NCBI GenBank assembly: GCA_963770895.1
Contig: CAVYRF010000002.1
Span: forward strand, 992,001 to 1,056,000
DNA from: an uncultured Acidobacteriota bacterium
Lineage (GTDB): Bacteria; Acidobacteriota; Thermoanaerobaculia; Multivoradales; UBA5704
Length of the DNA: 64,000 nt
Direction: 5' to 3'
The number at the start of each line of letters is the position of its first letter. The stretch's first letter is position 1. The notes under the pieces are model-generated. The model made no database searches and had not been told where the DNA came from. It worked only from the letters and a program-made list of their open reading frames with translations. Positions 3,275 to 51,847 of this stretch are shown here, in pieces. The position numbers were made by a program, and so were the translations under genes.

Positions 3275-3445
3275 TCAGCAGACCGGCAGGCAGCTGGCGT
3301 GCGGATAGGTGACCGTACAGTTGGGCGTGCAGCTGGTGGCGGGGCCGCTGATCACGCCGGCGGCGACGTCCTTGAGCTGCATCGGCGCCAGGTGGCGAAG
3401 GGTTTCGCGGTTGAGGGTGATGCGCTGCACCTTGTTGTTTTTCAT
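3275..3445 (-). CDS. RiPP/lanthipeptide-like precursor, 56 aa (MKNNKVQRITLNRETLRHLAPMQLKDVAAG-VISGPATSCTPNCTVTYPHASCLPVC)
   Basis: Hand translation; ATG at 3445 with AAGGGG SD-like motif upstream; TGA at 3275-3277; LNRETL leader, AG cleavage-like site, core with 4 Cys and 7 Ser/Thr. Confidence 0.8.
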   Translation of the reverse strand: MKNNKVQRITLNRETLRHLAPMQLKDVAAGVISGPATSCTPNCTVTYPHASCLPVC

Positions 3446-5572: not shown

Positions 5573-7720
5573 GTGGCCCCTTCCAAGGACCCTGCCCGTC
5601 CCCTTGCCGGCAACGGCGCCAACGGCGCCGGCGCGGCCGGCGCCGAAGGTGCCGCCGATCCCGCGGGCGGCGGCCCACCCAGCCTGCCGCACGCCCTGAT
5701 CGGCACCGCGGGCCACATCGATCACGGCAAGACCCGGCTGCTGCTGGCGCTCACCGGCATCGACTGCGACCGCTGGGCGGACGAAAAGGCGCGCGGCATC
5801 ACCATCGACCTCGGCTTCGCGCACCTGGCCGAAGCGGGGGTGCAGCTCGGTTTCGTCGACGTCCCCGGCCACGAGCGGTTCCTGCACAACGCCCTGGCGG
5901 GGCTCGGCGGCATCCGGGTGATGCTGCTGGTGGTGGCCGCCGACGAAGGGGTCAAGCCGCAGACCCGCGAGCACCTGGCCATCTGCTCGCTGCTCGGCAT
6001 TCCGGCGGCGGTGGTGGCGCTGACCAAGGCCGACCTGGCCAGCGCCGACCTGCTGGAGCTGGCGCAGCTGGAGATCGAAGACCTGCTGGCCGCCACCCCC
6101 TTTGCCGGCGCGCCGGTGCTGCCGGTGTCCAGCCTGACCGGGCAGGGCATCGCGGAGCTCAAGTCCGTGCTGCTGGCCGCGGCGGCGCGCCACGCGGTGG
6201 CCGCCGACCCGCGGCTGCCGGCGCGCCTGCCGATCGACCGCGCCTTCCACCTGCGCGGCCTGGGCGTGGTGGTGACCGGCACGCTGGCCGGCGGCGCGGT
6301 GCGCGTCGGCGACAGCCTGGAGCTGCTGCCGCCCGAAGCGGGGGTCGACGGCGCCGTACGGGTGCGCGCCATCCAGGTCCACGGCCAGGCGCGCCAGGAG
6401 GCTCTCGGTGGCGAGCGCACCTCGCTGCAGTTGAGCGGCGCGCCGCTCGAAGCCCTGCGGCGCGGCCAGCAGCTGGGCACCGTGGGCGCCTTCGCCGCCA
6501 CCACCAGCCTGCTGGCGCGCGTGCAGCTGCTGCCGGGGGCGGCGCCGCCTGGCGGCGGCGGCTTCATGCCGGTGCGGGTCCACCTGCATACCGGCCAGGC
6601 GCTGGGGCGGATGCGCTTTCTGCGTGCGCCGGCCAGCCCGGCGCACAGGGCAGCGGCAACGGCCGGGCCGGAGGCTACGACAGGGCCGGCGGCGACGGCG
6701 GGAACGGCGGCGGCGGAAGCGGCAGCAGCCGAAGCCGGCCAGGCACTGGCCGAGATCCGCCTGCAGACACCGCTGGCCGCGGTGCGCGGCGACCGGCTGA
6801 TCCTGCGCCGGCCGTCGCCCGCCGCGACGCTGGGGGGCGGCGAAGTGCTCGACCCGCGCTGGCGCCGCCACCGCGGCGCGGCGCTCGCCATCGCCCTGCC
6901 CGCCCTCGGCGGCGACGTCGATCGGGCGCTGGCGTTCTGGGCGCTGGAGGCCGGCGAAGGCGGGCTGGACGCGGACGCGGCCGGGCGCCGGCTGGGCGTG
7001 CCGCCGGCGCGGGCCGCGGCGCGCCTGGCCGCGCTGGCCAAGGGCGCCCGGCTGATCGAAGTGGCGGAGGGGCCGGGCCACGGCCGGGTGTGGATCGCTC
7101 CCGCCGCGGTGCAGCGCGTCGTCGAGCGCGCCCGGCGGGTGCTGGCGGACTACTTCGCGCGCCAGCGCCTGGCCGACGGCTGCCCCAAGGCGGAAGCGGT
7201 GCGGCGGATCCTGCGCGGCCGCGCCGCCGACCTGGCGCCGGTCTACCTGGCGTGGCTCGCGGCGCAGAAGGTGCTGGTGGTAAGCGGCGACCAGGTGACG
7301 CTGCCGGGGCGCAGCGCCCAGCTCACCGGCGACGAATCCAAGCTGGCGGCGGCGGCGCTGGCGGAGTTCGAACGCGGCGGCCTGACGCCCCCCTCGCCGG
7401 GCGAGGTGCGCCAGCTGCTCGCCGCCAAGCCGCAGATTCTGGAAGGCGTGCTGCACCACCTGGTGACCCGCGGCAAGCTCCTGCGCCTGCCGGGGGGGCT
7501 GATCGTCGCCGCCAGCGCCATCGCGGAGCTGCGGCGCGAGCTGCTCGCCACCGGATGGGAGCGCTTTTCGGTGCCGCAGTTCAAGGAGCGCTTCAACTTC
7601 AGCCGCAAATGGGCCATCCCGTTGCTGGAGCACCTGGACAGCGCCGGGATCACCCAACGCGCCGGCGACGAGCGCCTGGTGCTCAGGACGCCGCAGCCGG
7701 CGGCAGCGCCGGATCGCTAG
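5573..7720 (+). CDS. selB: Selenocysteine-specific elongation factor
   Basis: IGTAGHIDHGKT, EKARGITIDLGF, DVPGHERF; C-terminal winged helix SRKWAIPLLEHLD. Confidence 0.93.
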   Translation: MAPSKDPARPLAGNGANGAGAAGAEGAADPAGGGPPSLPHALIGTAGHIDHGKTRLLLALTGIDCDRWADEKARGITIDLGFAHLAEAGVQLGFVDVPGHERFLHNALAGLGGIRVMLLVVAADEGVKPQTREHLAICSLLGIPAAVVALTKADLASADLLELAQLEIEDLLAATPFAGAPVLPVSSLTGQGIAELKSVLLAAAARHAVAADPRLPARLPIDRAFHLRGLGVVVTGTLAGGAVRVGDSLELLPPEAGVDGAVRVRAIQVHGQARQEALGGERTSLQLSGAPLEALRRGQQLGTVGAFAATTSLLARVQLLPGAAPPGGGGFMPVRVHLHTGQALGRMRFLRAPASPAHRAAATAGPEATTGPAATAGTAAAEAAAAEAGQALAEIRLQTPLAAVRGDRLILRRPSPAATLGGGEVLDPRWRRHRGAALAIALPALGGDVDRALAFWALEAGEGGLDADAAGRRLGVPPARAAARLAALAKGARLIEVAEGPGHGRVWIAPAAVQRVVERARRVLADYFARQRLADGCPKAEAVRRILRGRAADLAPVYLAWLAAQKVLVVSGDQVTLPGRSAQLTGDESKLAAAALAEFERGGLTPPSPGEVRQLLAAKPQILEGVLHHLVTRGKLLRLPGGLIVAASAIAELRRELLATGWERFSVPQFKERFNFSRKWAIPLLEHLDSAGITQRAGDERLVLRTPQPAAAPDR

Positions 7721-7747
7721 TAAGGACTATTAGATCGAGAGGGACCC

Positions 7748-8122
7748 ATGAAGACCATCGCCGTGCTCGGCGCCTCCGCCGACCGCAGCAAGTTCGGCAA
7801 CAAGTGCGTGCGCGCCTACCTTGCCACCGGCTGGCAGGTCTACCCGGTGAATCCTGCCGGGCACGACATCGAAGGCTTGCCGGTCTGCCACGACCTGTCC
7901 GCGGTGCCGCAGCCGCTCGACCGCGTCAGCGTCTACCTGGCGCCGCCGCTCACCCTCGCCCTGCTGCCGGCGATCGCCGCCTGCGGGGCGCGCGAGGTCT
8001 GGTTCAACCCCGGCGCGGCGGACGGCGCCGTGCTGGCCGAAGCGCGGCGCCTGGGAATCCCCAGCCGCCCCGGATGCAGCATCGTCGACATCGGCCGCAG
8101 CCCGTCCGAGTTCCCCGGCTGA
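7748..8122 (+). CDS. CoA-binding protein (YccU-like)
   Basis: KTIAVLGAS..RSKFG, VYPVNP, VWFNPG; GAGGG SD. Confidence 0.88.
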   Translation: MKTIAVLGASADRSKFGNKCVRAYLATGWQVYPVNPAGHDIEGLPVCHDLSAVPQPLDRVSVYLAPPLTLALLPAIAACGAREVWFNPGAADGAVLAEARRLGIPSRPGCSIVDIGRSPSEFPG

Positions 8123-8247
8123 ACAAAATAGAACGGCAAACGTATACAGGCGTAGACTCCGGCTGGATGGCGTCGTAGCGTCAGGCCTGACTCCGCGGGG
8201 GCGGGGCGCCCAATGCCAGGCCGTGGTCCCTTCGGGAGGACGACCAG

Positions 8248-11200
8248 ATGTTTGCGGTGCTCGTGCACCCGGCGCTCTACCAGCGTTTGCGGCGGGGCTC
8301 GCCGGCCTTGCGCTCGCGGGTGCACAAGACGCTGCTGCGGCTGCGCGACGGCCGCTGGGGAGGCGGCACGCGGGTCAAGCGGCTGCGCGGCGCCTCCCAC
8401 GCCGTCTACGAAGCGCGCACCGACGGCGGCGACCGCATGCTCTTCACCATGGCGCGCCTCGCCGCCGGCGGCGGCGACCCGGCGGGCGGCGACGCTCTCC
8501 ATTTGCAGATCTGGGACCTGGTGGAACACGACGACGTCGACCGCGCCGCCCGGCGCACCCGCTCGCCCGAGGCCGGGTTCCTGGCCCTGGCCGCGCTCGA
8601 AGAGTTCGAGATCAGCGAGCCGCCGCCCTATCCCGACGCTCCCTTCAGCGCCTGGAGCGGCGCGGGCGACCAGGACCCGCTGCTGCGCTTCCTGCTGCCC
8701 GACGCCGACCCCGCGGCGGCGGCCGGCCCCGCCGGCGACTCCGCAGCCGACGCCCGGCTTGCCGCGGCCGCCGGCGGAAGCGGGACCGGGGCGGCGCCGC
8801 GCAACGTCCGCTGGTTCCAGCTCGACGCGGCCTGGCTGGCGGGCGAAGCGCAGTTCCAGCAGCTGCTCGACCGCGCCGGCGACCAGCTGGAGCTGAAGCT
8901 GGACGCCGAGCAGCTCCGCATCCTGCGGGCGCCGGGCCCGCTGCTGCTCGCCGGCAGCGCCGGCAGCGGCAAGACCACCCTGGCCGTGCACCGTCTGGCC
9001 GCTGCCGCCCTGGCGCCCGGCGACGGCCGCGCGCTGTACGTCTCGTGCAGTCCGGCCCTGGTCGAGCGCGCCCGCCGGCTCTACGACGACCTGACGGCGC
9101 TGCGCGGTGGCGACGCGGCAGCGTTGCGCGATGGCGACGCGGCGGCGCGGCGCCCCGACTTCTTCACTTTCGACGACCTGTACGCCACCGTGGTGGGGCG
9201 CGACTTCGAGCGCCACCGCTCCCGCCTGATGAGCGAAGCGGCCTTCGAAGAGTGGTTCCGCCGCGCCGGCCGGCCGCTCGATCCGGCGCTGGTGTGGCAG
9301 GAGGTGCGCAGCATCCTCAAAGGCGCCTGCCTGGCCCCCGGCAAGAGCGCCATGCTCGACCGCGACCAGTACTTTGAGCTGGGCCGCAAGCGCGCGCCGC
9401 TCTTTGTCGACCTGCGCCCGCAGATCTACCGCATCGCCGAGCGCTACCAGCAGTGGCTCGCCGAAGAAGACCGCCTGGACTCGATCGATCTCTGCCGCCT
9501 GGCCCTGGGCGAGCTGCGACGGCGCCGCGGCGGACCCTACGACGTGGTGATCTGCGACGAGGTGCAGGACCTGACGGAACTGGAAGTCGGTTTCGTGATC
9601 GCTCTGTCGGCCCGCACCGACCTGGCCGGCGTGATGCTGGCCGGCGACGCCCAGCAGGTCCTGAACCCCAGCGGCTTCCGCTGGGCCGAGGTCCGCCGCC
9701 TGGCCGCGCGCCACGCCCGCCAGCAGGCGCCGCCCGCCGTCCTGCACCTGCGCGACCCCGCCCGCTCCACCGCGCCCCTGTGCGCCTTCGCCAGCGCCCT
9801 GTCCACCCTGCGCCGCGACGTCTTCGGCCGCGGCGACGGCGAGCAAGGCGAAGACGAGCTGCCCGCCACCGCCCCCGGCCCCTTCCCGGTCCAGATCTTC
9901 GGCGATGAGGCGGCCGTCGTGGCATCGATCGTCGCGGTCGCCACCCCCGGCGCCAACGACGCGGGCCACGAGCGCGGCTTGGATCGCGGGAACCCAGCGC
10001 ATTGCGGGTACGACGCCGACGACGCCGGCGGTTGCGCCGTGCTGGTGGCGGATGCCGTCACCGCCCAGGCGCTGCGCGAGCGTCTGCCCGGATGCGCCGT
10101 GCTGACGGTGGCCCAGGCCAAGGGGCTGGAGTTCGACACCGTGGTGATGTGGCGGCTGCTGGCGGCGGACGCCGACCTGGTGGAGCGCCACCTGCGCGGC
10201 GAAGCGCGCGGCGAGCGGGAGGCGCGCTTTGCGCGGCTGCTGCGCTGGCTCTACGTCGCCGCAACGCGCGCCCGGCGCTGCCTGGCGGTCTACGAGGGCC
10301 AGGCGCCGCACCCCTTCTGGGGCCGCGCGCCGCTGGCCGCCGCGCTCGACCCTCTGCCGGCGCAGCACCTGCCGCGCGTCTTCCGCGCCGCCGCCGATCC
10401 GGAGGAGTGGGAGCGCCAGGGCGACTTTTTCGCCGCCCAGGACCTGCCGCGCCAGGCCGCCGAGTGCTACCGCCGCGCCGGCCTGGTGGAGCGCGAAACC
10501 GCAACCCTGGCGCAAGCCGACGAGGCGCGCCAGGATTGGGCGGCGGCGCTCGCCCGCTGGCAGGCGCTGGGCGGCACGGCACCGGCCCGCGAAGCGCCGC
10601 TGCTCGCGCGCCTGGGCCGCTTCGCCGCCGCCGCCGAGCGCTACCGCGCCGCCGGCCAGCGCGCCGCGGCGCTACGCTGCGACCTCCTGCTGCTGGAAAG
10701 CCGCGGCGCCTGGACCGACGCCGCCCGCGGCTGGGAAGACCTGGGCGACGACACGCGCGCCGCCCGCTGCTGGGCCGCCGCCGGCCAACGACGCGCCGCG
10801 ACCGCCGCCACCCTGCGCACCGCCGAAGCCGCCGGCGACTGGCCCACCGCCGCCGCCGGCTGGCTCGACCTCGGCGAGCACGACCGCGCCGCCCGCGCCT
10901 TCACCGCCGCCGCCGACCCCCGCGGCGCCGCCCACGCCGCGGCCCTGGCGCACCGCGAAGCCGGACGCTGGCCCGCCGCCGCCGCCGCCTTCCGCCTGTG
11001 CGGCCGCCGCCAGGACGCGCACCACTGCCTTGCCCAAGCCTTCGAAGCCGCCGGCCGCCCCCGCCAGGCAGCCCGCCACTGGCTGCACCTGGGCGACCCC
11101 GCCAGCCATCGCCGCGCCGTCGATCGCCTGGTCGAAGCCGGCGCCTGGCTCGACGTCGCCCGCCTGGAGCCCGCCGCACCGCCCCCCGCAACCGAATCCG

Positions 11201-11811
11201 CCGGCGCCAAGCCCGGCAGCCGCGTCCTGACCCACATCGAGCAGCTGGTGGCTGACCGGACAAGCGAGCGGGAGGATGGCAACGCTGCCGTCCTGCTGGC
11301 CACACGGAGGGAGGCTCTGACGCCGCTGCTGCCGGAGGTGCCTTGGTTTCTGGCGGGCGCGGAGGAGCGGCGGGCGCGGGCGGAGTTGCAAGCGGTCGAG
11401 CAGCTCGAGCTGCGCCGGCGCGCCATCGCGGCGGAACGGGCGGGGGCTTGGAGCCGCGCCAGCCGGTGCTGGCGGCGGGCGGGCGACCTGCGGCGGGCTG
11501 ACGGCGCGCGCGACCGGCGGATCGCCGGACTTGCCGATCCGCTGCGCCAGGTGCGGGCCTGGTGGCTGACGGGCGACCCTGCCAGCCGCCGGCGTGCCGC
11601 GGCGTTGGCCGCCGGCGCCGCGGCGCGCGGGCCGCTGCTGACTGTCGCCGTCGCGGCGCTGGCTGCTGAAGGTGAGGGCCGCTGGCAGACGGCCGCGGAG
11701 CTGTGGGCGCGGATCGCGCGGCGCGGCGACGTGATGCGCTGCATGGCCCGGGTGGCCGCATTCCGTGACGAGGCGCTGCCGCCGGCCCACGGCGGCAGGA
11801 GGCGGTCCTGA
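8248..11811 (+). CDS. UvrD/Rep (SF1) helicase with putative N-terminal RelE/ParE-like domain and C-terminal TPR-like solenoid
   Basis: GSAGSGKT, DEVQD, AGDAQQ, TVAQAKGLEFD, LYVAATRAR; N-terminal VYEAR..GDRMLF..IWDLVEHDDV; repeated W..AA..(W/Y/F) helices. Confidence 0.82.
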   Translation: MFAVLVHPALYQRLRRGSPALRSRVHKTLLRLRDGRWGGGTRVKRLRGASHAVYEARTDGGDRMLFTMARLAAGGGDPAGGDALHLQIWDLVEHDDVDRAARRTRSPEAGFLALAALEEFEISEPPPYPDAPFSAWSGAGDQDPLLRFLLPDADPAAAAGPAGDSAADARLAAAAGGSGTGAAPRNVRWFQLDAAWLAGEAQFQQLLDRAGDQLELKLDAEQLRILRAPGPLLLAGSAGSGKTTLAVHRLAAAALAPGDGRALYVSCSPALVERARRLYDDLTALRGGDAAALRDGDAAARRPDFFTFDDLYATVVGRDFERHRSRLMSEAAFEEWFRRAGRPLDPALVWQEVRSILKGACLAPGKSAMLDRDQYFELGRKRAPLFVDLRPQIYRIAERYQQWLAEEDRLDSIDLCRLALGELRRRRGGPYDVVICDEVQDLTELEVGFVIALSARTDLAGVMLAGDAQQVLNPSGFRWAEVRRLAARHARQQAPPAVLHLRDPARSTAPLCAFASALSTLRRDVFGRGDGEQGEDELPATAPGPFPVQIFGDEAAVVASIVAVATPGANDAGHERGLDRGNPAHCGYDADDAGGCAVLVADAVTAQALRERLPGCAVLTVAQAKGLEFDTVVMWRLLAADADLVERHLRGEARGEREARFARLLRWLYVAATRARRCLAVYEGQAPHPFWGRAPLAAALDPLPAQHLPRVFRAAADPEEWERQGDFFAAQDLPRQAAECYRRAGLVERETATLAQADEARQDWAAALARWQALGGTAPAREAPLLARLGRFAAAAERYRAAGQRAAALRCDLLLLESRGAWTDAARGWEDLGDDTRAARCWAAAGQRRAATAATLRTAEAAGDWPTAAAGWLDLGEHDRAARAFTAAADPRGAAHAAALAHREAGRWPAAAAAFRLCGRRQDAHHCLAQAFEAAGRPRQAARHWLHLGDPASHRRAVDRLVEAGAWLDVARLEPAAPPPATESAGAKPGSRVLTHIEQLVADRTSEREDGNAAVLLATRREALTPLLPEVPWFLAGAEERRARAELQAVEQLELRRRAIAAERAGAWSRASRCWRRAGDLRRADGARDRRIAGLADPLRQVRAWWLTGDPASRRRAAALAAGAAARGPLLTVAVAALAAEGEGRWQTAAELWARIARRGDVMRCMARVAAFRDEALPPAHGGRRRS

Positions 11812-13511
11812 CCGCGCCCGCACAGCACCCCGATCCAGCGGCCGTTCGCCGCCTGATCCTGGGCACCGCATCGCCGGTCGAGGCGCGGCAGGTCGTTCGC
11901 CACCTGCTGACCGGCTGCGGCCACTGCAATCGCTTCGCGCACGCCGCCGGCGCCGGCCCGACGGGCGGTGACGACGCCGCGGCGGCGTCTGATTCCGCAT
12001 CCACCGCCGCCCGCGATGCCGCCAACGCCCGCGCCCGAGGCTCGGCTCCCTCCCCGGCCCGCTCTCCCTCCCCGTCCGATTCCGCCGGCGATCCGCGGGA
12101 CGCCTCCAAGTACGACCAGGTGTTTGAGCGCATGAAGGAGCGCCTGCGCTCCGCGCCGCTCGGCGACTCGCCGGCCCATGACGCCGATGAGGACGCGCCG
12201 GAGGCGCCCGCGGCAGCCGGCGATGGGCGACCAGGCGCAGAAGCGGCACTGCCCTCGCCGGGTGCCGCGCCGTCGGGCACCCTCGCCATCTCCACCGCCC
12301 CCATCATCCGGCCCGGCCGCCCGGCGCCGGGCGCCGCGGACCTGGCGCGGCAGACGCTAGCCGCCGGCGGCGCCGCCGGGGCGGGAGCCGGCGCCGGCGC
12401 CCACGAGCTGTACGCCGAGCTTTTGGGGCACGACGCGGTGCAGGCCCTGACGCAGGTGCAAAGCACCCGGCGCTACGCCTATCTGGCGCTGTGCGAGCTC
12501 CTGCTGCGCAAGAGCTTCGGCCTGGAAAACGGCACGACGGCGGCGGCGGGCGTGGGCGACGCGGCGGCGATGGCGGCGCGCTGCGTCGTGGCGGCGGCCG
12601 AGGTCGCGGAGCTGCTCGACCTGGAAGTCTACGGCGCGCCGGTCGTCCAGGACGTGCGCGCCATCGCCTGGACCTATTTCACCGGCGGCGAGAGCATGCA
12701 GGAGGACATGCGCACCGCCGAGGTTTCGCGGCGCCTCGCCGCGCGGCTGCTCGCCGGCAGCGCCGACCGCGCACCCGGACGGCCGTCGCTGCTCGCGGCG
12801 CAGGCGGCGCTCGCCGGACATTGCGGACATTTTGGCGAGTCGCTGCGCCTGCTCACCGGCGCGGCCGGGTGCTATCGCCGCACCGATCAGGCTCACCTGG
12901 CTGCCCGCTTCCTGCTCAAGAAGGGCATGGCGCTGGGCAACGCCGGCGAAACCCAGGCCGCCGTCCGCCTGCTGTGGCGCGGCCTCGACACCATCGAGCC
13001 GGCGCGCGAGCCGCGGCTGCTGGTGTGGGCGACCCACAACCTCGCGTGGTTCCTGCACGAAGCCGGGCGCACCGGGCAGGCCGCCTCGTGCATCGAAGCC
13101 GCCCGCAAGCTCTATCGCGCGGCGCGCGACCGCCGCGAAATGTCGCGCTTGCGCTGGCTGGAAGGCAAGCTCGCGGCCGACTTCGGCACCGCCGAAACCG
13201 CCCTCGCCGAGGCCCGCGACGGCCTGGCGCGCGAGGGCCTGGCCTACGAGGCGGCGCTGGCCGCGATGGATCTCGCCGTGCGCTATGCCGGCGAGCGGCA
13301 GGCGGCGCGGATGCGCCAGCAGGCCGACGGCATGCTGGCGCTGTTCCGGTCGGATAGCATGTACGGGGAAACGGTCTTCGCCATGCGCTCCTTCCGCGAG
13401 CACGGCGGCGGCGACGACCCCAGCGACCTGTTGCGCGACCTGACCGCCTACCTCGACCAGGCCCGCCGGCCGCAAAACCCCAAGGCCCTGGCAGCCAGCA
13501 TTCCGCCCTGA
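11808..13511 (+). CDS. Zinc-finger (ZAS-like H-x24-H-x4-C-x2-C) + TPR-like protein; probable CTG start (track start is 12120)
   Basis: Frame open from 11769; AGGAGG at 11797-11802 then CTG at 11808 overlapping the helicase TGA; VVRHLLTGCGHC; REPRL and RLRWLEGK shared with the paralog at 50227. Confidence 0.72.
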   Translation: MTAPAQHPDPAAVRRLILGTASPVEARQVVRHLLTGCGHCNRFAHAAGAGPTGGDDAAAASDSASTAARDAANARARGSAPSPARSPSPSDSAGDPRDASKYDQVFERMKERLRSAPLGDSPAHDADEDAPEAPAAAGDGRPGAEAALPSPGAAPSGTLAISTAPIIRPGRPAPGAADLARQTLAAGGAAGAGAGAGAHELYAELLGHDAVQALTQVQSTRRYAYLALCELLLRKSFGLENGTTAAAGVGDAAAMAARCVVAAAEVAELLDLEVYGAPVVQDVRAIAWTYFTGGESMQEDMRTAEVSRRLAARLLAGSADRAPGRPSLLAAQAALAGHCGHFGESLRLLTGAAGCYRRTDQAHLAARFLLKKGMALGNAGETQAAVRLLWRGLDTIEPAREPRLLVWATHNLAWFLHEAGRTGQAASCIEAARKLYRAARDRREMSRLRWLEGKLAADFGTAETALAEARDGLAREGLAYEAALAAMDLAVRYAGERQAARMRQQADGMLALFRSDSMYGETVFAMRSFREHGGGDDPSDLLRDLTAYLDQARRPQNPKALAASIPP

Positions 13512-13613
13512 GCCAGCGCCCCGGCGCCGCGACGACACGCCGACCCGGCGGCCCGGGGAAGCGGAGCCGATGCCCCAGAGACCACCGCGAACCACCAGGA
13601 GACCCGCCGACCC

Positions 13614-14804
13614 ATGCCGCCACAGATCCCCGACACCGAGCTGCTGGCCCGGCTGGTCGGCTTCGACTCGACCAGCCGCAACAGCAACCTGCCGATCGCG
13701 GATTTCCTCTGCGACTACCTCGATCGGCCCGGCATCCGCGTGCACCGCAACCTGTCGAGCGCGGGCGACAAGGCCAACCTGATCTTCACCGTCGGTCCGC
13801 CCCACGACGAAGCCGCCGGCGGCGACGGCAGCGGAGCCGGCCCGGCCCGGCCCGGCCTGGTGCTGTCGGGACACATGGACGTCGTGCCGGCCGAGGAGGC
13901 GGGTTGGCAGAGCGATCCCTTCACCCTCACCGACCACGCCGACCGCCTGGTCGGGCGAGGTGCCTGCGACATGAAAGGCTTCCTCGCCCTGGCCGCCAAC
14001 CTGGCGATCGAGGCCAGCGGCGGGCGGCTGGCCCACCCGCTGGCGCTGCTCTTCACCTACGACGAAGAGGTGGGGACCCTGGGCGCCAAACGGCTGGTCG
14101 AAAGCTGCGCCGCGGCGCGCTCGCTGCCCTCCAACGCGGTCATCGGCGAACCCACCTGCCTGCGGGTGGTGCGCGCCCACAAGGGCCACCTCACCATGCG
14201 GGTCACCCTGCACGGCCGCAGCGCCCACAGCGGCTACCCGCACCTCGGGCAGAATGCCATCGAACCCGCCGCCCTGGTGGTGACCGCTCTCGCCGGCCTG
14301 CGCCGCCAGCTGGCCGCCGAGTCGACGCCGCACGCCGAGCTCTTCCCCGAAGTGCCCTTCGTGCCGCTCAACGTCGGCAGGGTGCACGGCGGCGCCGCCA
14401 TCAACGTCGTCCCCGACCGCTGCGTGATCGAGCTCGGCATGCGGCGGCTGCCCGGCGGCGACTCGCGGCAGCTGGCGGCGCGGGTCGAGCAGATCGTCCA
14501 GGACGTGGCGGCCGGCTGCCAGCCCCAGGTGGAGGTCCTCACCGACAGCCCGCCGCTGCTGGCGGCGAACGACGCGCCGGTGGTCCGCCGCCTGCTGGAG
14601 CTCAGCGGCCAGCAGGAACCGCAAACCGTCTCCTATGCCACCGACGCCGGATGGCTGCAACAGCTCGGCATGGATTGCGTCCTGTTCGGTCCCGGCTCGA
14701 TCGACGTCGCCCACCGCCCCAACGAGCACCTCCCCAAGGCCGACCTTGCCGCCGCTCGCCAGGTGATCGGTCAGGCGGTCGCTGCGTTCTGCGCCGAGAC
14801 CTGA
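13614..14804 (+). CDS. argE: M20 family acetylornithine deacetylase-like amidohydrolase
   Basis: LSGHMDVVP, GRGACDMKGF, YDEEVG, IGEPT, FGPGSI..AHRPNE. Confidence 0.8.
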   Translation: MPPQIPDTELLARLVGFDSTSRNSNLPIADFLCDYLDRPGIRVHRNLSSAGDKANLIFTVGPPHDEAAGGDGSGAGPARPGLVLSGHMDVVPAEEAGWQSDPFTLTDHADRLVGRGACDMKGFLALAANLAIEASGGRLAHPLALLFTYDEEVGTLGAKRLVESCAAARSLPSNAVIGEPTCLRVVRAHKGHLTMRVTLHGRSAHSGYPHLGQNAIEPAALVVTALAGLRRQLAAESTPHAELFPEVPFVPLNVGRVHGGAAINVVPDRCVIELGMRRLPGGDSRQLAARVEQIVQDVAAGCQPQVEVLTDSPPLLAANDAPVVRRLLELSGQQEPQTVSYATDAGWLQQLGMDCVLFGPGSIDVAHRPNEHLPKADLAAARQVIGQAVAAFCAET

Positions 14805-49416: not shown

Positions 49417-49809
49417 GTCATTCCTCCACCGACAATTGGGAGCGCGATCATAGCCGCCGCAAACCCCAATGACAAGCGGGCAACGGGTAGTGGGGTGCGC
49501 CTCTTGCTGGCCCAGGGATAGGGGTATCCACCGCTGTGGTCGCCGACCCGCCACTGCCTGCCGAGGTAGCGGGCGCCGATCGAAGTCACGAAGTCACGCA
49601 TGCCGACGAGAAGACAGCGGTGCCTGCACAGGCAGAAGCACAAAAGTGCCCCGGTCTCCTCGCACTGGCAACACCCTCTTAGCATGAGCTGCCGTTTCGT
49701 CGGAACGGAACATCCACGACCAGGCCAACGGAACCCAGGTCTGTGGATACGGAACCCGTGGCACGCACCGCGGCGGTCGCGCGATCCAACGGGGTCCCTG
49801 GAGAAGGGT

Positions 49810-50094
49810 ATGCGTCTTCGAAGTGTCGCTCTCGTAGCTCTCGCCTTGTTCCTGCTTGGCCTCCCTGTTTCAGGTTCGGCTATGGACATCCTGCACGGCA
49901 TGCGTGCGGGAGTCGAGGTGGCGTCCTTGCCCAACTCGTGGTGGACCCGATTCGAGCGGGTTTTGCGAGGGATCCTGCCAACCGGGACGCCCGATCGCCA
50001 CGTTGACAGCCGCTCAGCCGGTGGCGGCACACACGGCGGAAGTGTCCACAGCCAGGGCAACATCGGCATGGACCCGAACGGTGGCGGCGGCTAG
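49810..50094 (+). CDS. Small secreted protein (94 aa) ending GNIGMDPNGGGG; candidate signalling propeptide
   Basis: GGAGAAGGG upstream of the ATG; signal peptide MRLRSVALVALALFLLGLPVSGSA; followed by a terminator. Confidence 0.65.
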   Translation: MRLRSVALVALALFLLGLPVSGSAMDILHGMRAGVEVASLPNSWWTRFERVLRGILPTGTPDRHVDSRSAGGGTHGGSVHSQGNIGMDPNGGGG

Positions 50095-50226: not shown

Positions 50227-51645
50227 ATGCCCAAAGAACGCGATGCGCAGCGGAAAGGCGCGTCCGGCGATGATCCCGCCGGCGTGCACTTCTCGGCAAA
50301 AGAGTTCGCGGACCTGGTTGCCAATCGGCTGCCGGGCCGGCGGCGGCATCAGCTTGTCCGCCACATGGTGCGCGGTTGCGTGGCGTGCTCGAAGATCTCG
50401 GCGCGCGTCCTGGCGTCCACCAGGAAGGAGGGGGTGCCGCAGCTCCCCCTGGGGATCAACCAGGCAGAGTTCGATCTCGTGTTCACCAATGCCACCAGCG
50501 CCACCGAGCTGCGGGACCGACAGCTTGCCTGGGAGCGCCTCCAGGCCTGGGTGCTCTGGTGCGAGCTGGAGCCCCTGCCGCCCGCAGAGAGGCAACACCG
50601 CGTACGCCACTACAAGGAGTTTCACACCTGGGGCATGTACGAGCGGTTGCTGGAGGCAAGCGTCTGGCACCGCCACAACGATCCGGCGGAAGCGGTCGAC
50701 ATCGTGAAGCTGGCGGTGCTCGTCGCTGAGAACATGCCCAGCTCTCACATCCCGGGGCGAGCCGGTGGCCGCACCCGGCTGCTGGCGCGCGCCTGGACCC
50801 ATCTCGCCAACGCGATGCGGGTGGCGGCGGATTTCGACGACGCGCGCAGAGCCCTCAACCAGGCGTGGGGATTTTGGGAGGACGCGCACGACCCCGAAAC
50901 GGAGGCCAGGATCTACAGTGTCGAAGCCAGCTATCACAGCGACCGCGGCGACTTCGCCATGGCCGAGATCGTCGGCCAGCAGGCGCTCGATATCTATACG
51001 GCGCTGGGCGCCGAGTATCGGCACGAGCAGGGGCAGACGCTGCTGACGATGGGGGTCAATCTCATCGACGCCAATCCCCGCAAGGGCATGTTGTTCTTGC
51101 GGCGCAGCCTGGGCCTGGTGGACCTGAACCGCGAGCCGCGGTTGCACCTCTACGGCAAGCACAGCATCGCGGCCTGTCTTGCAGCGCTGCGGCAGGGCGA
51201 AGCCGCGCTTGCAGCCTTGGAGGAAGTCCGGCCGCTCTACCGGCAGTACGATGACGACGCCTTCATTCAGCTGCGCTTGCACTGGCTTGAAGGCCGAGTC
51301 GTTCGATGCCTCGGCAAGCCCGTCGAGGCGGCGCAAGTCTTCGCGCAGGTGGCGGAGCAGTTCAGGGCGCTCGACATGCGTCATGAAACGGTGTTGGCGG
51401 CGCTCGACCAAGCGGAGGCGCTGGCCGCGCAAGGCGACTTCGACGCCGCGCAAAGGGCTCTCGAAGAGGTCACACCTCTGATGACCGCCTGGCGGCTGAA
51501 CACCTACCTGGTGGCGGCGTGGCTCCTCCTGATCAACGCCCTCAAAACCCACCAGACGGTCGATCTCTTTCCCCGCCTGCAGCTCTACTTCAGCCTCCGC
51601 TGGAAAGCGCCTGTGGAGTTCGTCGCAAATCCCGAGCCGTCGTGA
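50227..51645 (+). CDS. Zinc-finger (ZAS-like H-x24-H-x4-C-x2-C) + TPR-like protein, paralog of 11808-13511
   Basis: GGGAGG SD then ATG at 50227; VRHMVRGCVAC; REPRL; RLHWLEGR; helical repeats. Confidence 0.75.
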   Translation: MPKERDAQRKGASGDDPAGVHFSAKEFADLVANRLPGRRRHQLVRHMVRGCVACSKISARVLASTRKEGVPQLPLGINQAEFDLVFTNATSATELRDRQLAWERLQAWVLWCELEPLPPAERQHRVRHYKEFHTWGMYERLLEASVWHRHNDPAEAVDIVKLAVLVAENMPSSHIPGRAGGRTRLLARAWTHLANAMRVAADFDDARRALNQAWGFWEDAHDPETEARIYSVEASYHSDRGDFAMAEIVGQQALDIYTALGAEYRHEQGQTLLTMGVNLIDANPRKGMLFLRRSLGLVDLNREPRLHLYGKHSIAACLAALRQGEAALAALEEVRPLYRQYDDDAFIQLRLHWLEGRVVRCLGKPVEAAQVFAQVAEQFRALDMRHETVLAALDQAEALAAQGDFDAAQRALEEVTPLMTAWRLNTYLVAAWLLLINALKTHQTVDLFPRLQLYFSLRWKAPVEFVANPEPS

Positions 51646-51718: not shown

Positions 51719-51847
51719 TTACGGCGGGCCGCACTTGATCGCGACGGAGCAGATGGGCGGGTTCGAATTGTTGCCGCCTTGCACGGTGCTGAGAAGACTG
51801 GTGAGGGTCTCCCTGTGGATCACGAGCTTCGCTGCATTCTTTTTCAT
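51719..51847 (-). CDS. RiPP/lanthipeptide-like precursor, 42 aa (MKKNAAKLVIHRETLTSLLSTVQGG-NNSNPPICSVAIKCGPP)
   Basis: Hand translation; AGGAGG SD 4 nt before the ATG; TAA at 51719-51721; RETL leader, double-Gly, core with 2 Cys and 2 Ser. Confidence 0.8.
   Translation of the reverse strand: MKKNAAKLVIHRETLTSLLSTVQGGNNSNPPICSVAIKCGPP

Follow-up and report, generated by a model that had tools for sequence, protein, structure and literature searches.

A zinc anti-sigma-type tetratricopeptide repeat gene, very likely started at CTG, and its linkage to a RelE-like/UvrD helicase gene in an uncultured Acidobacteriota bacterium

The window we investigated comprises 64,000 nucleotides of contig CAVYRF010000002.1 (assembly GCA_963770895.1, positions 992,001 to 1,056,000) from an uncultured Acidobacteriota bacterium of the Thermoanaerobaculia; positions given below without a contig are those of the window. 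It contains a gene for a UvrD-type helicase, followed immediately by a gene that joins a zinc anti-sigma (ZAS)-type domain to tetratricopeptide repeats (TPRs), here called ZAS-TPR (Table 1). The frame of the latter gene is free of stop codons from 11769 to 13508 (580 codons, with the stop at 13509-13511) and holds no ATG, GTG or TTG over 11769-12119, the earliest being GTG 12120 and ATG 12132. A preliminary description of this DNA had placed the start of a protein of 567 amino acids at the CTG at 11808-11810, five nucleotides behind the sequence AGGAGG (11797-11802) and sharing bases, as CTGA, with the helicase stop codon TGA (11809-11811), and we find the frame and its signals as described there. 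The public gene call (P0002) starts at ATG 12132 and, at 459 amino acids, leaves out the zinc domain; the named homologs are entered as "tetratricopeptide repeat protein" of Thermoanaerobaculia or Acidobacteriota. The stop codon at 11766, which closes the frame upstream, is incidental, and one related contig has CGA in its place.

The position of the CTG agrees with the starts of the orthologs. The 32 loci anchored on the helicase consist of the locus of this genome, seven in which the helicase and the ZAS-TPR are fused, one (in genome G091) without a zinc motif within the locus, and 23 with a separate ortholog; in G091 the zinc motif was found farther from the helicase, beyond the locus first examined. 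All 23 unfused orthologs have an ATG, GTG or TTG 5 to 12 codons before the first His, and in 16 of them (14 ATG, one GTG and one TTG) this start is at codon -6, matching the position of the CTG. The CTG is lineage-specific, given the canonical start in every unfused ortholog examined. An AGGAGG 4 to 9 nucleotides upstream is a feature of only 630 among 390,493 genomic CTG triplets (0.16%), which makes its placement here more than chance; AGG accounts for 3% of the Arg codons genome-wide, and the Shine-Dalgarno (SD) sequence uses two of the three AGG codons in the helicase gene. The predicted duplex of SD and anti-SD amounts to -10.3 kcal/mol for a start at 11808, 0.0 for 12120 and -6.4 for 12132, and CTG 11808 is the sole near-cognate codon of the stretch from the upstream stop to the first His. 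The hexamer score over 11808-12119 also favours the ZAS-TPR frame, if weakly. At the start, no conserved RNA structure was found, as folding was no better than that of shuffled sequences (z -1.17); a scan of 7700-13700 for promoters and terminators found none and is uninformative at 71% GC. No RNA data set was listed as containing this DNA, which has no bearing on whether the gene is expressed. The translational coupling to the helicase that had been proposed is plausible at this locus, but the overlap of stop and start is not conserved: the start overlaps the helicase stop in five of the 23 orthologs, follows it by 9 nucleotides in two, and by 37 to 116 nucleotides in 16.

Contigs from related strains allow a closer look at the start. 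The possibility that the CTG is a sequencing error for ATG or GTG is rejected, as the codon is unchanged in contigs from four runs, which represent four studies; these contigs have a depth of 2 to 5.4, and only that from X2 extends more than 31 letters to both sides of the codon, while that from X3, which is identical and ends three letters from the codon, may be the source of the window. A frameshift error that masks a fusion of the two genes is likewise ruled out, with no frameshifting indel over 11670-11946 in the run contigs; the related contigs contain two indels, both of 3 nucleotides. Upstream, five of eight substitutions are synonymous in the helicase frame; downstream, six of nine are synonymous in the ZAS-TPR frame, including all three inside the zinc domain, and the pattern changes from one frame to the other between 11805 and 11813. 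Considered together, the ortholog starts, the SD sequence, the substitution pattern and the hexamer score indicate that the N-terminal extension is coding and that the CTG is very likely its start; we hold with high confidence that the gene begins at CTG 11808. CUG gave 1-2% of the output of AUG in E. coli (10.1101/063800), and the output of the partner protein may therefore be low, unless coupling compensates.

Two further genes of this genome resemble the ZAS-TPR gene in their starts. An OmpR-type response regulator (L120:300-967; G000 C1 1954666, minus strand) has a GGAGG and a CTGA overlap and lacks a canonical start over 20 codons, while its homolog in G007 has an ATG near the same place; from its sequence, it is probably a second CTG start in the genome. 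A third candidate (L121:881; G000 C2 5713080, minus strand) combines AAGGAGG and a CTGA overlap ahead of a gene that is called from a downstream GTG.

The hidden N-terminal domain was proposed to be homologous to ZAS domains, with a spacing of four residues between the second His and the first Cys (x4), and both profile and fold matches support this. The arrangement H(11826)-x24-H(11901)-x4-C(11916)-x2-C(11925) is present, and the protein encoded at 50227 in the same window has the same spacing. When a profile of 50 such zinc domains was compared with the sequences in the PDB, the five best matches were DdvA, ChrR and RslA (E 0.005-0.017), and the profile aligns with the ChrR ligands H5, H31, C35 and C38, apart from one residue inserted between His and Cys. 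In the AlphaFold model of the domain (predicted local distance difference test, pLDDT, 79.5) helices span residues 8-16, 21-32 and 36-46. A structure search against 48,161 chains placed RsiW (Z 5.4, root-mean-square deviation 3.5 over 56 residues), MucA (Z 4.9) and RslA (Z 4.8) as the top three, and all 11 rows shown by Foldseek for the domain are ZAS proteins (ChrR, RsiW, RslA and DdvA), with weak E values of 2.7-9.5; low scores of this kind are expected, because the domain has only about 60 residues. H5, C35 and C38 are invariant and H30 is nearly so in the 50 domains, which were selected by this very pattern; in an independent set of 84 full-length homologs H10, H35, C40 and C43 are conserved to at least 90%. 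The Pfam family zf-HC2 does not detect the domain of the window, which is also outside the zf-HC2 matches of the genome, while 15 of the 50 family domains match at E <= 1 (best 2e-4); NCBIfam and PADLOC scans of the ZAS-TPR protein gave no matches. The N-terminal domain is by homology an x4 variant of the ZAS domain, for which zinc and sigma binding are predicted. The Sigma70_r2 scan found no sigma factor in the window, nor did inspection by eye of the genes called at 16 ortholog loci reveal one.

The helicase has Pfam matches above cut-off to UvrD-helicase and UvrD_C_2, its SF1 (superfamily 1) motifs are intact, and the Walker A motif GSAGSGKT and the motif DEVQD are invariant in 58 homologs. 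TPR matches are found among the precomputed Pfam annotations of homologs. PADLOC matches are confined to the helicase motifs, and the core resembles the helicases of GajB-type defence systems. The N-terminal domain is less easily assigned. In the ESM Atlas, residues 1-125 of the homolog P0119 are closest to clusters of the RelE family (0.92, with 167-175 shared features), and a set of 20 sequences of the domain shows no variation at K44, E55, R57, R63 and H94; these residues may correspond to the catalytic residues of RelE and HigB. A profile of the domain matched 204 clusters at 50% identity, and in a sample of 36 of these, the 16 long proteins are all UvrD proteins, most of which carry TPR, clathrin-like, leucine-rich repeat (LRR) or WG repeats, while four short ones match YoeB or HigB below cut-off (E 1.6e-4 to 9e-3). 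The domain of the window itself has no match in Pfam, NCBIfam or PADLOC, and a profile search of PDB sequences returned chance matches only. It is likely RelE-like, and is predicted to be a ribonuclease (RNase). Across the class, close relatives of the domain were found in two of the 201 genomes searched, both of family f1. The layout of effector, nucleoside triphosphatase and repeats suggests a stress or conflict enzyme. The distant RelE-like/UvrD proteins P0249, P0264 and P0285 carry an N-terminal OB fold, C-terminal LRRs or WG repeats and may point to a wider NLR-like helicase family. A conserved stretch INPSG or VNPSG in the helicase is similar to the DPNG-type peptides described below; it is part of a core helicase motif and is found in distant relatives too, and we treat the likeness as chance.

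The two genes are found together or are missing together in almost all genomes of the family. The C-terminal part of the helicase occurs in 36 of 92 genomes, and so does a ZAS-TPR at the level of an ortholog, a cut-off that was set after the gap was seen (best E values <= 2e-115, the next 4e-91); both genes are present in 35 genomes, only the helicase in one (G088), only the ZAS-TPR in one (G061), and neither in 55. Within genera the presence is patchy, with one of nine other genomes in g1 and 14 of 41 in g5, and in G001, G003, G007 and G023 the flanking genes selB/CoA-binding and argE have been kept while both genes are missing. In genus g7 helicase and ZAS-TPR form a single open reading frame (ORF) at seven of the 32 loci, in six genomes; in G015 and G098 this unit occurs as a tandem duplicate, and the database protein P0094 has the same fusion junction. 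In the tandem copies of g7 (L103:6581-15262 and L104:5717-14617) the ZAS-TPR of one copy has diverged, with 43-51% identity to P0008 compared to about 62%. A search of metagenome and genome contig sets for related loci found none. Because kin are not independent and ten of the 35 genomes belong to g7, the joint presence of the two genes is strong linkage and not proof of co-evolution; we nevertheless consider a functional partnership of the two proteins, as indicated by synteny, joint presence and fusion, to be probable.

Table 1. Features of the helicase and ZAS-TPR locus (positions in the window)
Feature	Position	Strand	Basis or remark
Partner gene, 1187 amino acids: RelE/YoeB-like N-terminal domain, UvrD-type SF1 helicase, C-terminal TPR-like repeats	8248..11811	+	Pfam, motifs
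RelE-like (predicted RNase) domain of the helicase	8248..8589	+	ESM Atlas, Pfam matches below cut-off, invariant residues
Shine-Dalgarno sequence AGGAGG	11797..11802	+	Pair of rare AGG (Arg) codons, 3' end of the helicase gene; unchanged in run contigs X1, X2 and X4
CTG start codon (very likely) on the helicase stop (CTGA, -4 overlap)	11808..11811	+	Ortholog starts; contigs of four runs
ZAS-TPR gene, 567 amino acids	11808..13511	+	Frame and start analysis
Zinc anti-sigma-type three-helix domain	11826..11951	+	Predicted ligands H11826, H11901, C11916, C11925; profile, AlphaFold and fold matches
Ala/Pro/Gly-rich linkers flanking the conserved YDQVF helix (12111-12125)	11952..12401	+	Longer than in most orthologs
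TPR superhelix common to all paralogs	12402..13508	+	P0004 model; His-Asn of the ATHN motif invariant in the helicase-linked subfamily

The TPR part was modelled in the compact homolog P0004 and forms an all-helical superhelix (pLDDT 87.6). In Foldseek searches with this model, Rap proteins rank first (E 3.5e-4 and a template modelling, TM, score of 0.36 for the best), with weak TM scores of 0.34-0.38 overall, and all seven matches at E <= 0.001 are Rap proteins; VIA gave Z scores of 17.7 for LGN, 17.0 for Rap and 15.9 for NprR, which puts the RRNPP receptors level with generic TPR proteins. None of the RRNPP structure chains was matched in a sequence search with hidden Markov models (HMMs). 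The model and the Pfam scans show no transmembrane segment, and the product is very likely soluble. As had been proposed, the protein is a paralog of that encoded at 50227: the motifs YDQVF/FDLVF, REPRL, LYR, RLxWLEG(K/R) and LAA(M/L)D align, and pairwise BLASTP gave E 6e-9 with 31% identity over 152 amino acids. To call it a "second" paralog was wrong, because a count of the family finds about 45-54 members in the genome. The single ZAS-TPR protein finds 32 matches; an iterated HMM finds 77, of which 54 reach at least 120 bits; this set includes some fragments and generic TPR proteins, and the x4 zinc motif occurs in 18 of the 54. About 25 members have an N-terminus that by eye resembles a helix-turn-helix (HTH), and the XRE type was confirmed in all six that were tested.

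Many of these paralogs lie beside genes for small peptides. Of 41 short ORFs that end in [D/N]P[N/D]G (DPNG-type), 17 are within 1.5 kb of a family gene, surroundings that make up about 3.1% of the genome, and several begin with an apparent signal peptide. In the window, the ORF at 49600-50094 (plus strand), upstream of the paralog at 50227, ends in ...GNIGMDPNGGGG and resembles a precursor of such a peptide. Beside the helicase-linked ZAS-TPR no DPNG peptide gene was found, neither in the window nor in the 16 ortholog loci, within which the only two such peptides flank other paralogs. Going by sequence, many paralogs have an RRNPP-like layout of TPR receptor and secreted DPNG peptide, and the helicase-linked members are a peptide-less subfamily. 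Three zinc-type paralogs adjoin sigma-70 genes, in a genome that encodes roughly 40 sigma-70 proteins. In one of these cases (L083:4039-8843; G000 C2 5716541-5721342, minus strand) a secreted DPNG peptide, an ECF-like (extracytoplasmic function) sigma factor and a ZAS-TPR form an operon in which the sigma and ZAS-TPR genes overlap by 4 nucleotides, and two further sigma paralogs are located upstream. Small XRE-like HTH genes are convergent to many zinc-type paralogs (L085:5577-6125, L086:5579-6064, L084:3233-3733, L082:7020-7448, L087:5695-6126 and L088:3159-3980), with HTH_3 found in two of three tested; their products are possible alternative targets of the zinc domain.

Two zinc-type paralogs, at G000 C1 659100-660665 (L090) and C2 898814-900649 (L081), are seemingly split in two ORFs, by an in-frame TAG and a probable frameshift. 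The window also contains two short ORFs on the minus strand (3275-3445 and 51719-51847) with a common leader-like N-terminus KxxxxLxxxRETL and a C-terminus rich in Cys, Thr and Ser, like precursors of ribosomally synthesised and post-translationally modified peptides; further ORFs of this kind are present at L077:7062-7208 and on C1.

A reading that would accommodate these observations is that the ZAS-TPR, started at the CTG and descended from a family of peptide receptors, is a dedicated regulatory partner of the RelE-like/UvrD/TPR helicase; as a whole we regard this statement as plausible, though not firmly so. Ribosomes that end translation of the helicase would re-start at the SD sequence and CTG. 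The protein would derive from the large peptide-receptor-like TPR family of the genome, with its peptide gene lost and the TPR groove now engaging the helicase. The chances that the two proteins bind each other directly appear to us evenly balanced. The role of the zinc domain would be to bind a protein partner, for which an ECF sigma factor from another locus is the simplest candidate, or else to sense oxidation; that a sigma factor is the target of the domain is a tentative, somewhat doubtful suggestion. The pair would constitute an accessory stress or anti-parasite module, in which a helicase driven by ATP and bearing a predicted RNase is combined with a switch. A bolder version, which we consider rather unlikely, describes a two-part cytoplasmic sentinel: a peptide receptor captured by the RelE-UvrD-TPR enzyme, whose TPR groove binds the helicase and whose zinc domain frees an ECF sigma factor when the helicase is triggered. 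If true, this sentinel would put a transcriptional response under the direct influence of an RNA-cutting helicase, and each lineage would tune the dosage through one of three arrangements: a separate gene with ATG, a coupled gene with CTG, or complete fusion.

Several observations weigh against the regulatory partnership. Helicase and partner are not inseparable: G088 has a helicase without a partner at the locus (the genome is 71% complete and the locus looks frameshifted), in G061 the partner stands beside a helicase remnant only, and G010, which has no helicase match, keeps only an 84-residue relic of the zinc domain (L118:7213-7467) upstream of argE. In G091 a gene for 123 amino acids separates the helicase from the partner. 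The co-occurrence is also inflated by kinship, adjacency and fusion, and distant RelE-UvrD-repeat proteins occur elsewhere. The assignment to RelE is based on feature similarity and sub-threshold Pfam matches, the window lacks a sigma factor gene, and a start codon as weak as CUG is ill-suited to a partner needed in equal amounts. The 123-residue gene (MDLSEKVT...; L107:6402-6773 and L112:8460-8831) comes after the helicase in both genomes: in G091 it is on the opposite strand, whereas in G088 it shares the strand of the helicase and occupies the expected place of the ZAS-TPR.

An alternative explanation is that the ZAS-TPR protein is an orphan peptide receptor, which detects a DPNG-type peptide produced elsewhere and through its zinc domain controls a sigma factor or XRE protein, with the helicase as co-transcribed cargo. 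The clustering of DPNG-type ORFs around family genes, the Rap proteins among the Foldseek matches, the zinc-type paralogs beside sigma-70 genes and the invariant groove-type His-Asn are all in keeping with this. However, a peptide gene beside the helicase-linked copies was not found, the match to Rap is weak and level with LGN and other TPR proteins, and the fusion to the helicase and the joint duplication would have to go unexplained; we think this explanation unlikely. We give still less weight to the possibility that the ZAS-TPR acts as an antitoxin or inhibitor that silences the RelE-like RNase until stress, such as zinc loss or a phage trigger, releases it. The invariant basic residues and His of the RelE-like domain, the patchy presence within genera, the partner-only remnants in G061 and G010, and a helicase core like that of GajB-type defence systems would suit such a role, but the gene is downstream of the toxin and here has a weak start codon, the helicase of G088 (with the reservations given above) has no partner at its locus, and the module is fixed at one chromosomal site among housekeeping genes. 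We consider an antitoxin quite improbable.

Mere linkage, in which the neighbours are passed on and lost as one block without a functional link and the fusion in g7 is an accident that has been tolerated, would fit an intergenic gap that ranges from -26 to +116 nucleotides and the occurrence of paralogs in many unrelated settings. Yet other small genes turn over at this site while helicase and ZAS-TPR stay paired, and the fusion has been retained in no fewer than six genomes and in each of the tandem copies; mere linkage has in our judgement a poor chance of being the explanation. Least probable by far is that the CTG is not used, and that the zinc domain is either produced solely through a -1 frameshift, as part of a fusion with the helicase like that of g7, or is left out by a start at 12120 or 12132. 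The frame is indeed open for 13 codons upstream of the CTG, in the -1 frame relative to the helicase, natural fusions exist, the database call begins at 12132, and CUG is a weak start codon; however, the sequence CGG TCC TGA at the end of the helicase gene offers no slippery run, related-strain contigs have no indel here, the CTG coincides with the ATG codon of the orthologs behind a strong SD sequence, and the zinc domain is under purifying selection.

The regulatory partner that we propose for the helicase shares features with several known systems. Like the ZAS (class I anti-sigma domain) proteins ChrR, RslA, RsiW and DdvA, it has a three-helix N-terminal domain with the ligand order His...His-Cys-x2-Cys; unlike the canonical H-x3-C-x2-C motif, it has one residue more between His and the first Cys; its gene has no sigma gene next to it and is linked to a helicase. 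In DdvA of Myxococcus xanthus, which controls a defence island, a ZAS domain is likewise combined with TPRs (PMC11506125). In comparison with ZAS proteins including DdvA, neither a transmembrane segment nor a CHAT protease was seen here in the model and the Pfam scans. The literature searched, outside which most subscription papers lie, contains no description of an x4 ZAS domain, of a family of TPR proteins with DPNG peptides, or of the pair with a helicase; nor did it contain an anti-sigma module linked to a nuclease-helicase, which is what the locus would represent if the two proteins form a complex.

A second comparison is with the RRNPP(A) receptors of Bacillota (Rap, NprR and PlcR), which resemble the paralog family in that many paralogs have a secreted peptide gene beside them, and possibly in the TPR superhelix, for which Rap proteins lead the Foldseek matches but are level with LGN and other TPR proteins in VIA. 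Rgg and NprR differ from Rap in that an XRE-HTH is replaced in the latter by a protein-binding N-terminal domain, and the same exchange is seen within the paralog family. In contrast to the RRNPP(A) receptors, the N-terminal domain here is a zinc anti-sigma-type domain, the helicase-linked copy has no peptide gene beside it, and the host is, by the names of the homologs, a relative of the Thermoanaerobaculia. The locus contributes a peptide-less subfamily that synteny, joint presence and fusion connect with a RelE-like/UvrD/TPR helicase.

The helicase, with its likely RelE-like N-terminal domain on an SF1 helicase, is similar to fusions of the RelE/ParE superfamily and to the GajB-type UvrD proteins. 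A RelE-fused helicase beside Tiamat (type I-K) is mentioned in 10.64898/2026.09.30.754977, and the words "helicase" and "TPR" are absent from the main text of a survey of RelE/ParE proteins (PMC11980606). Compared to these RelE-helicase systems, the helicase described here carries a long array of TPRs at its C-terminus and has the ZAS-TPR as its proposed partner. The start of the ZAS-TPR gene, finally, resembles other instances of CUG initiation in bacteria in that a near-cognate codon follows a strong SD sequence; here the case is built on orthology and strain data, and the CTG is confined to one lineage. Rare CUG starts were already known, and the CTG start together with the missed zinc domain is a solid correction to the annotation. 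Beyond this, the series of separate, overlapping and fused genes provides a natural set in which to study how start codon and fusion set the dosage of the subunits.

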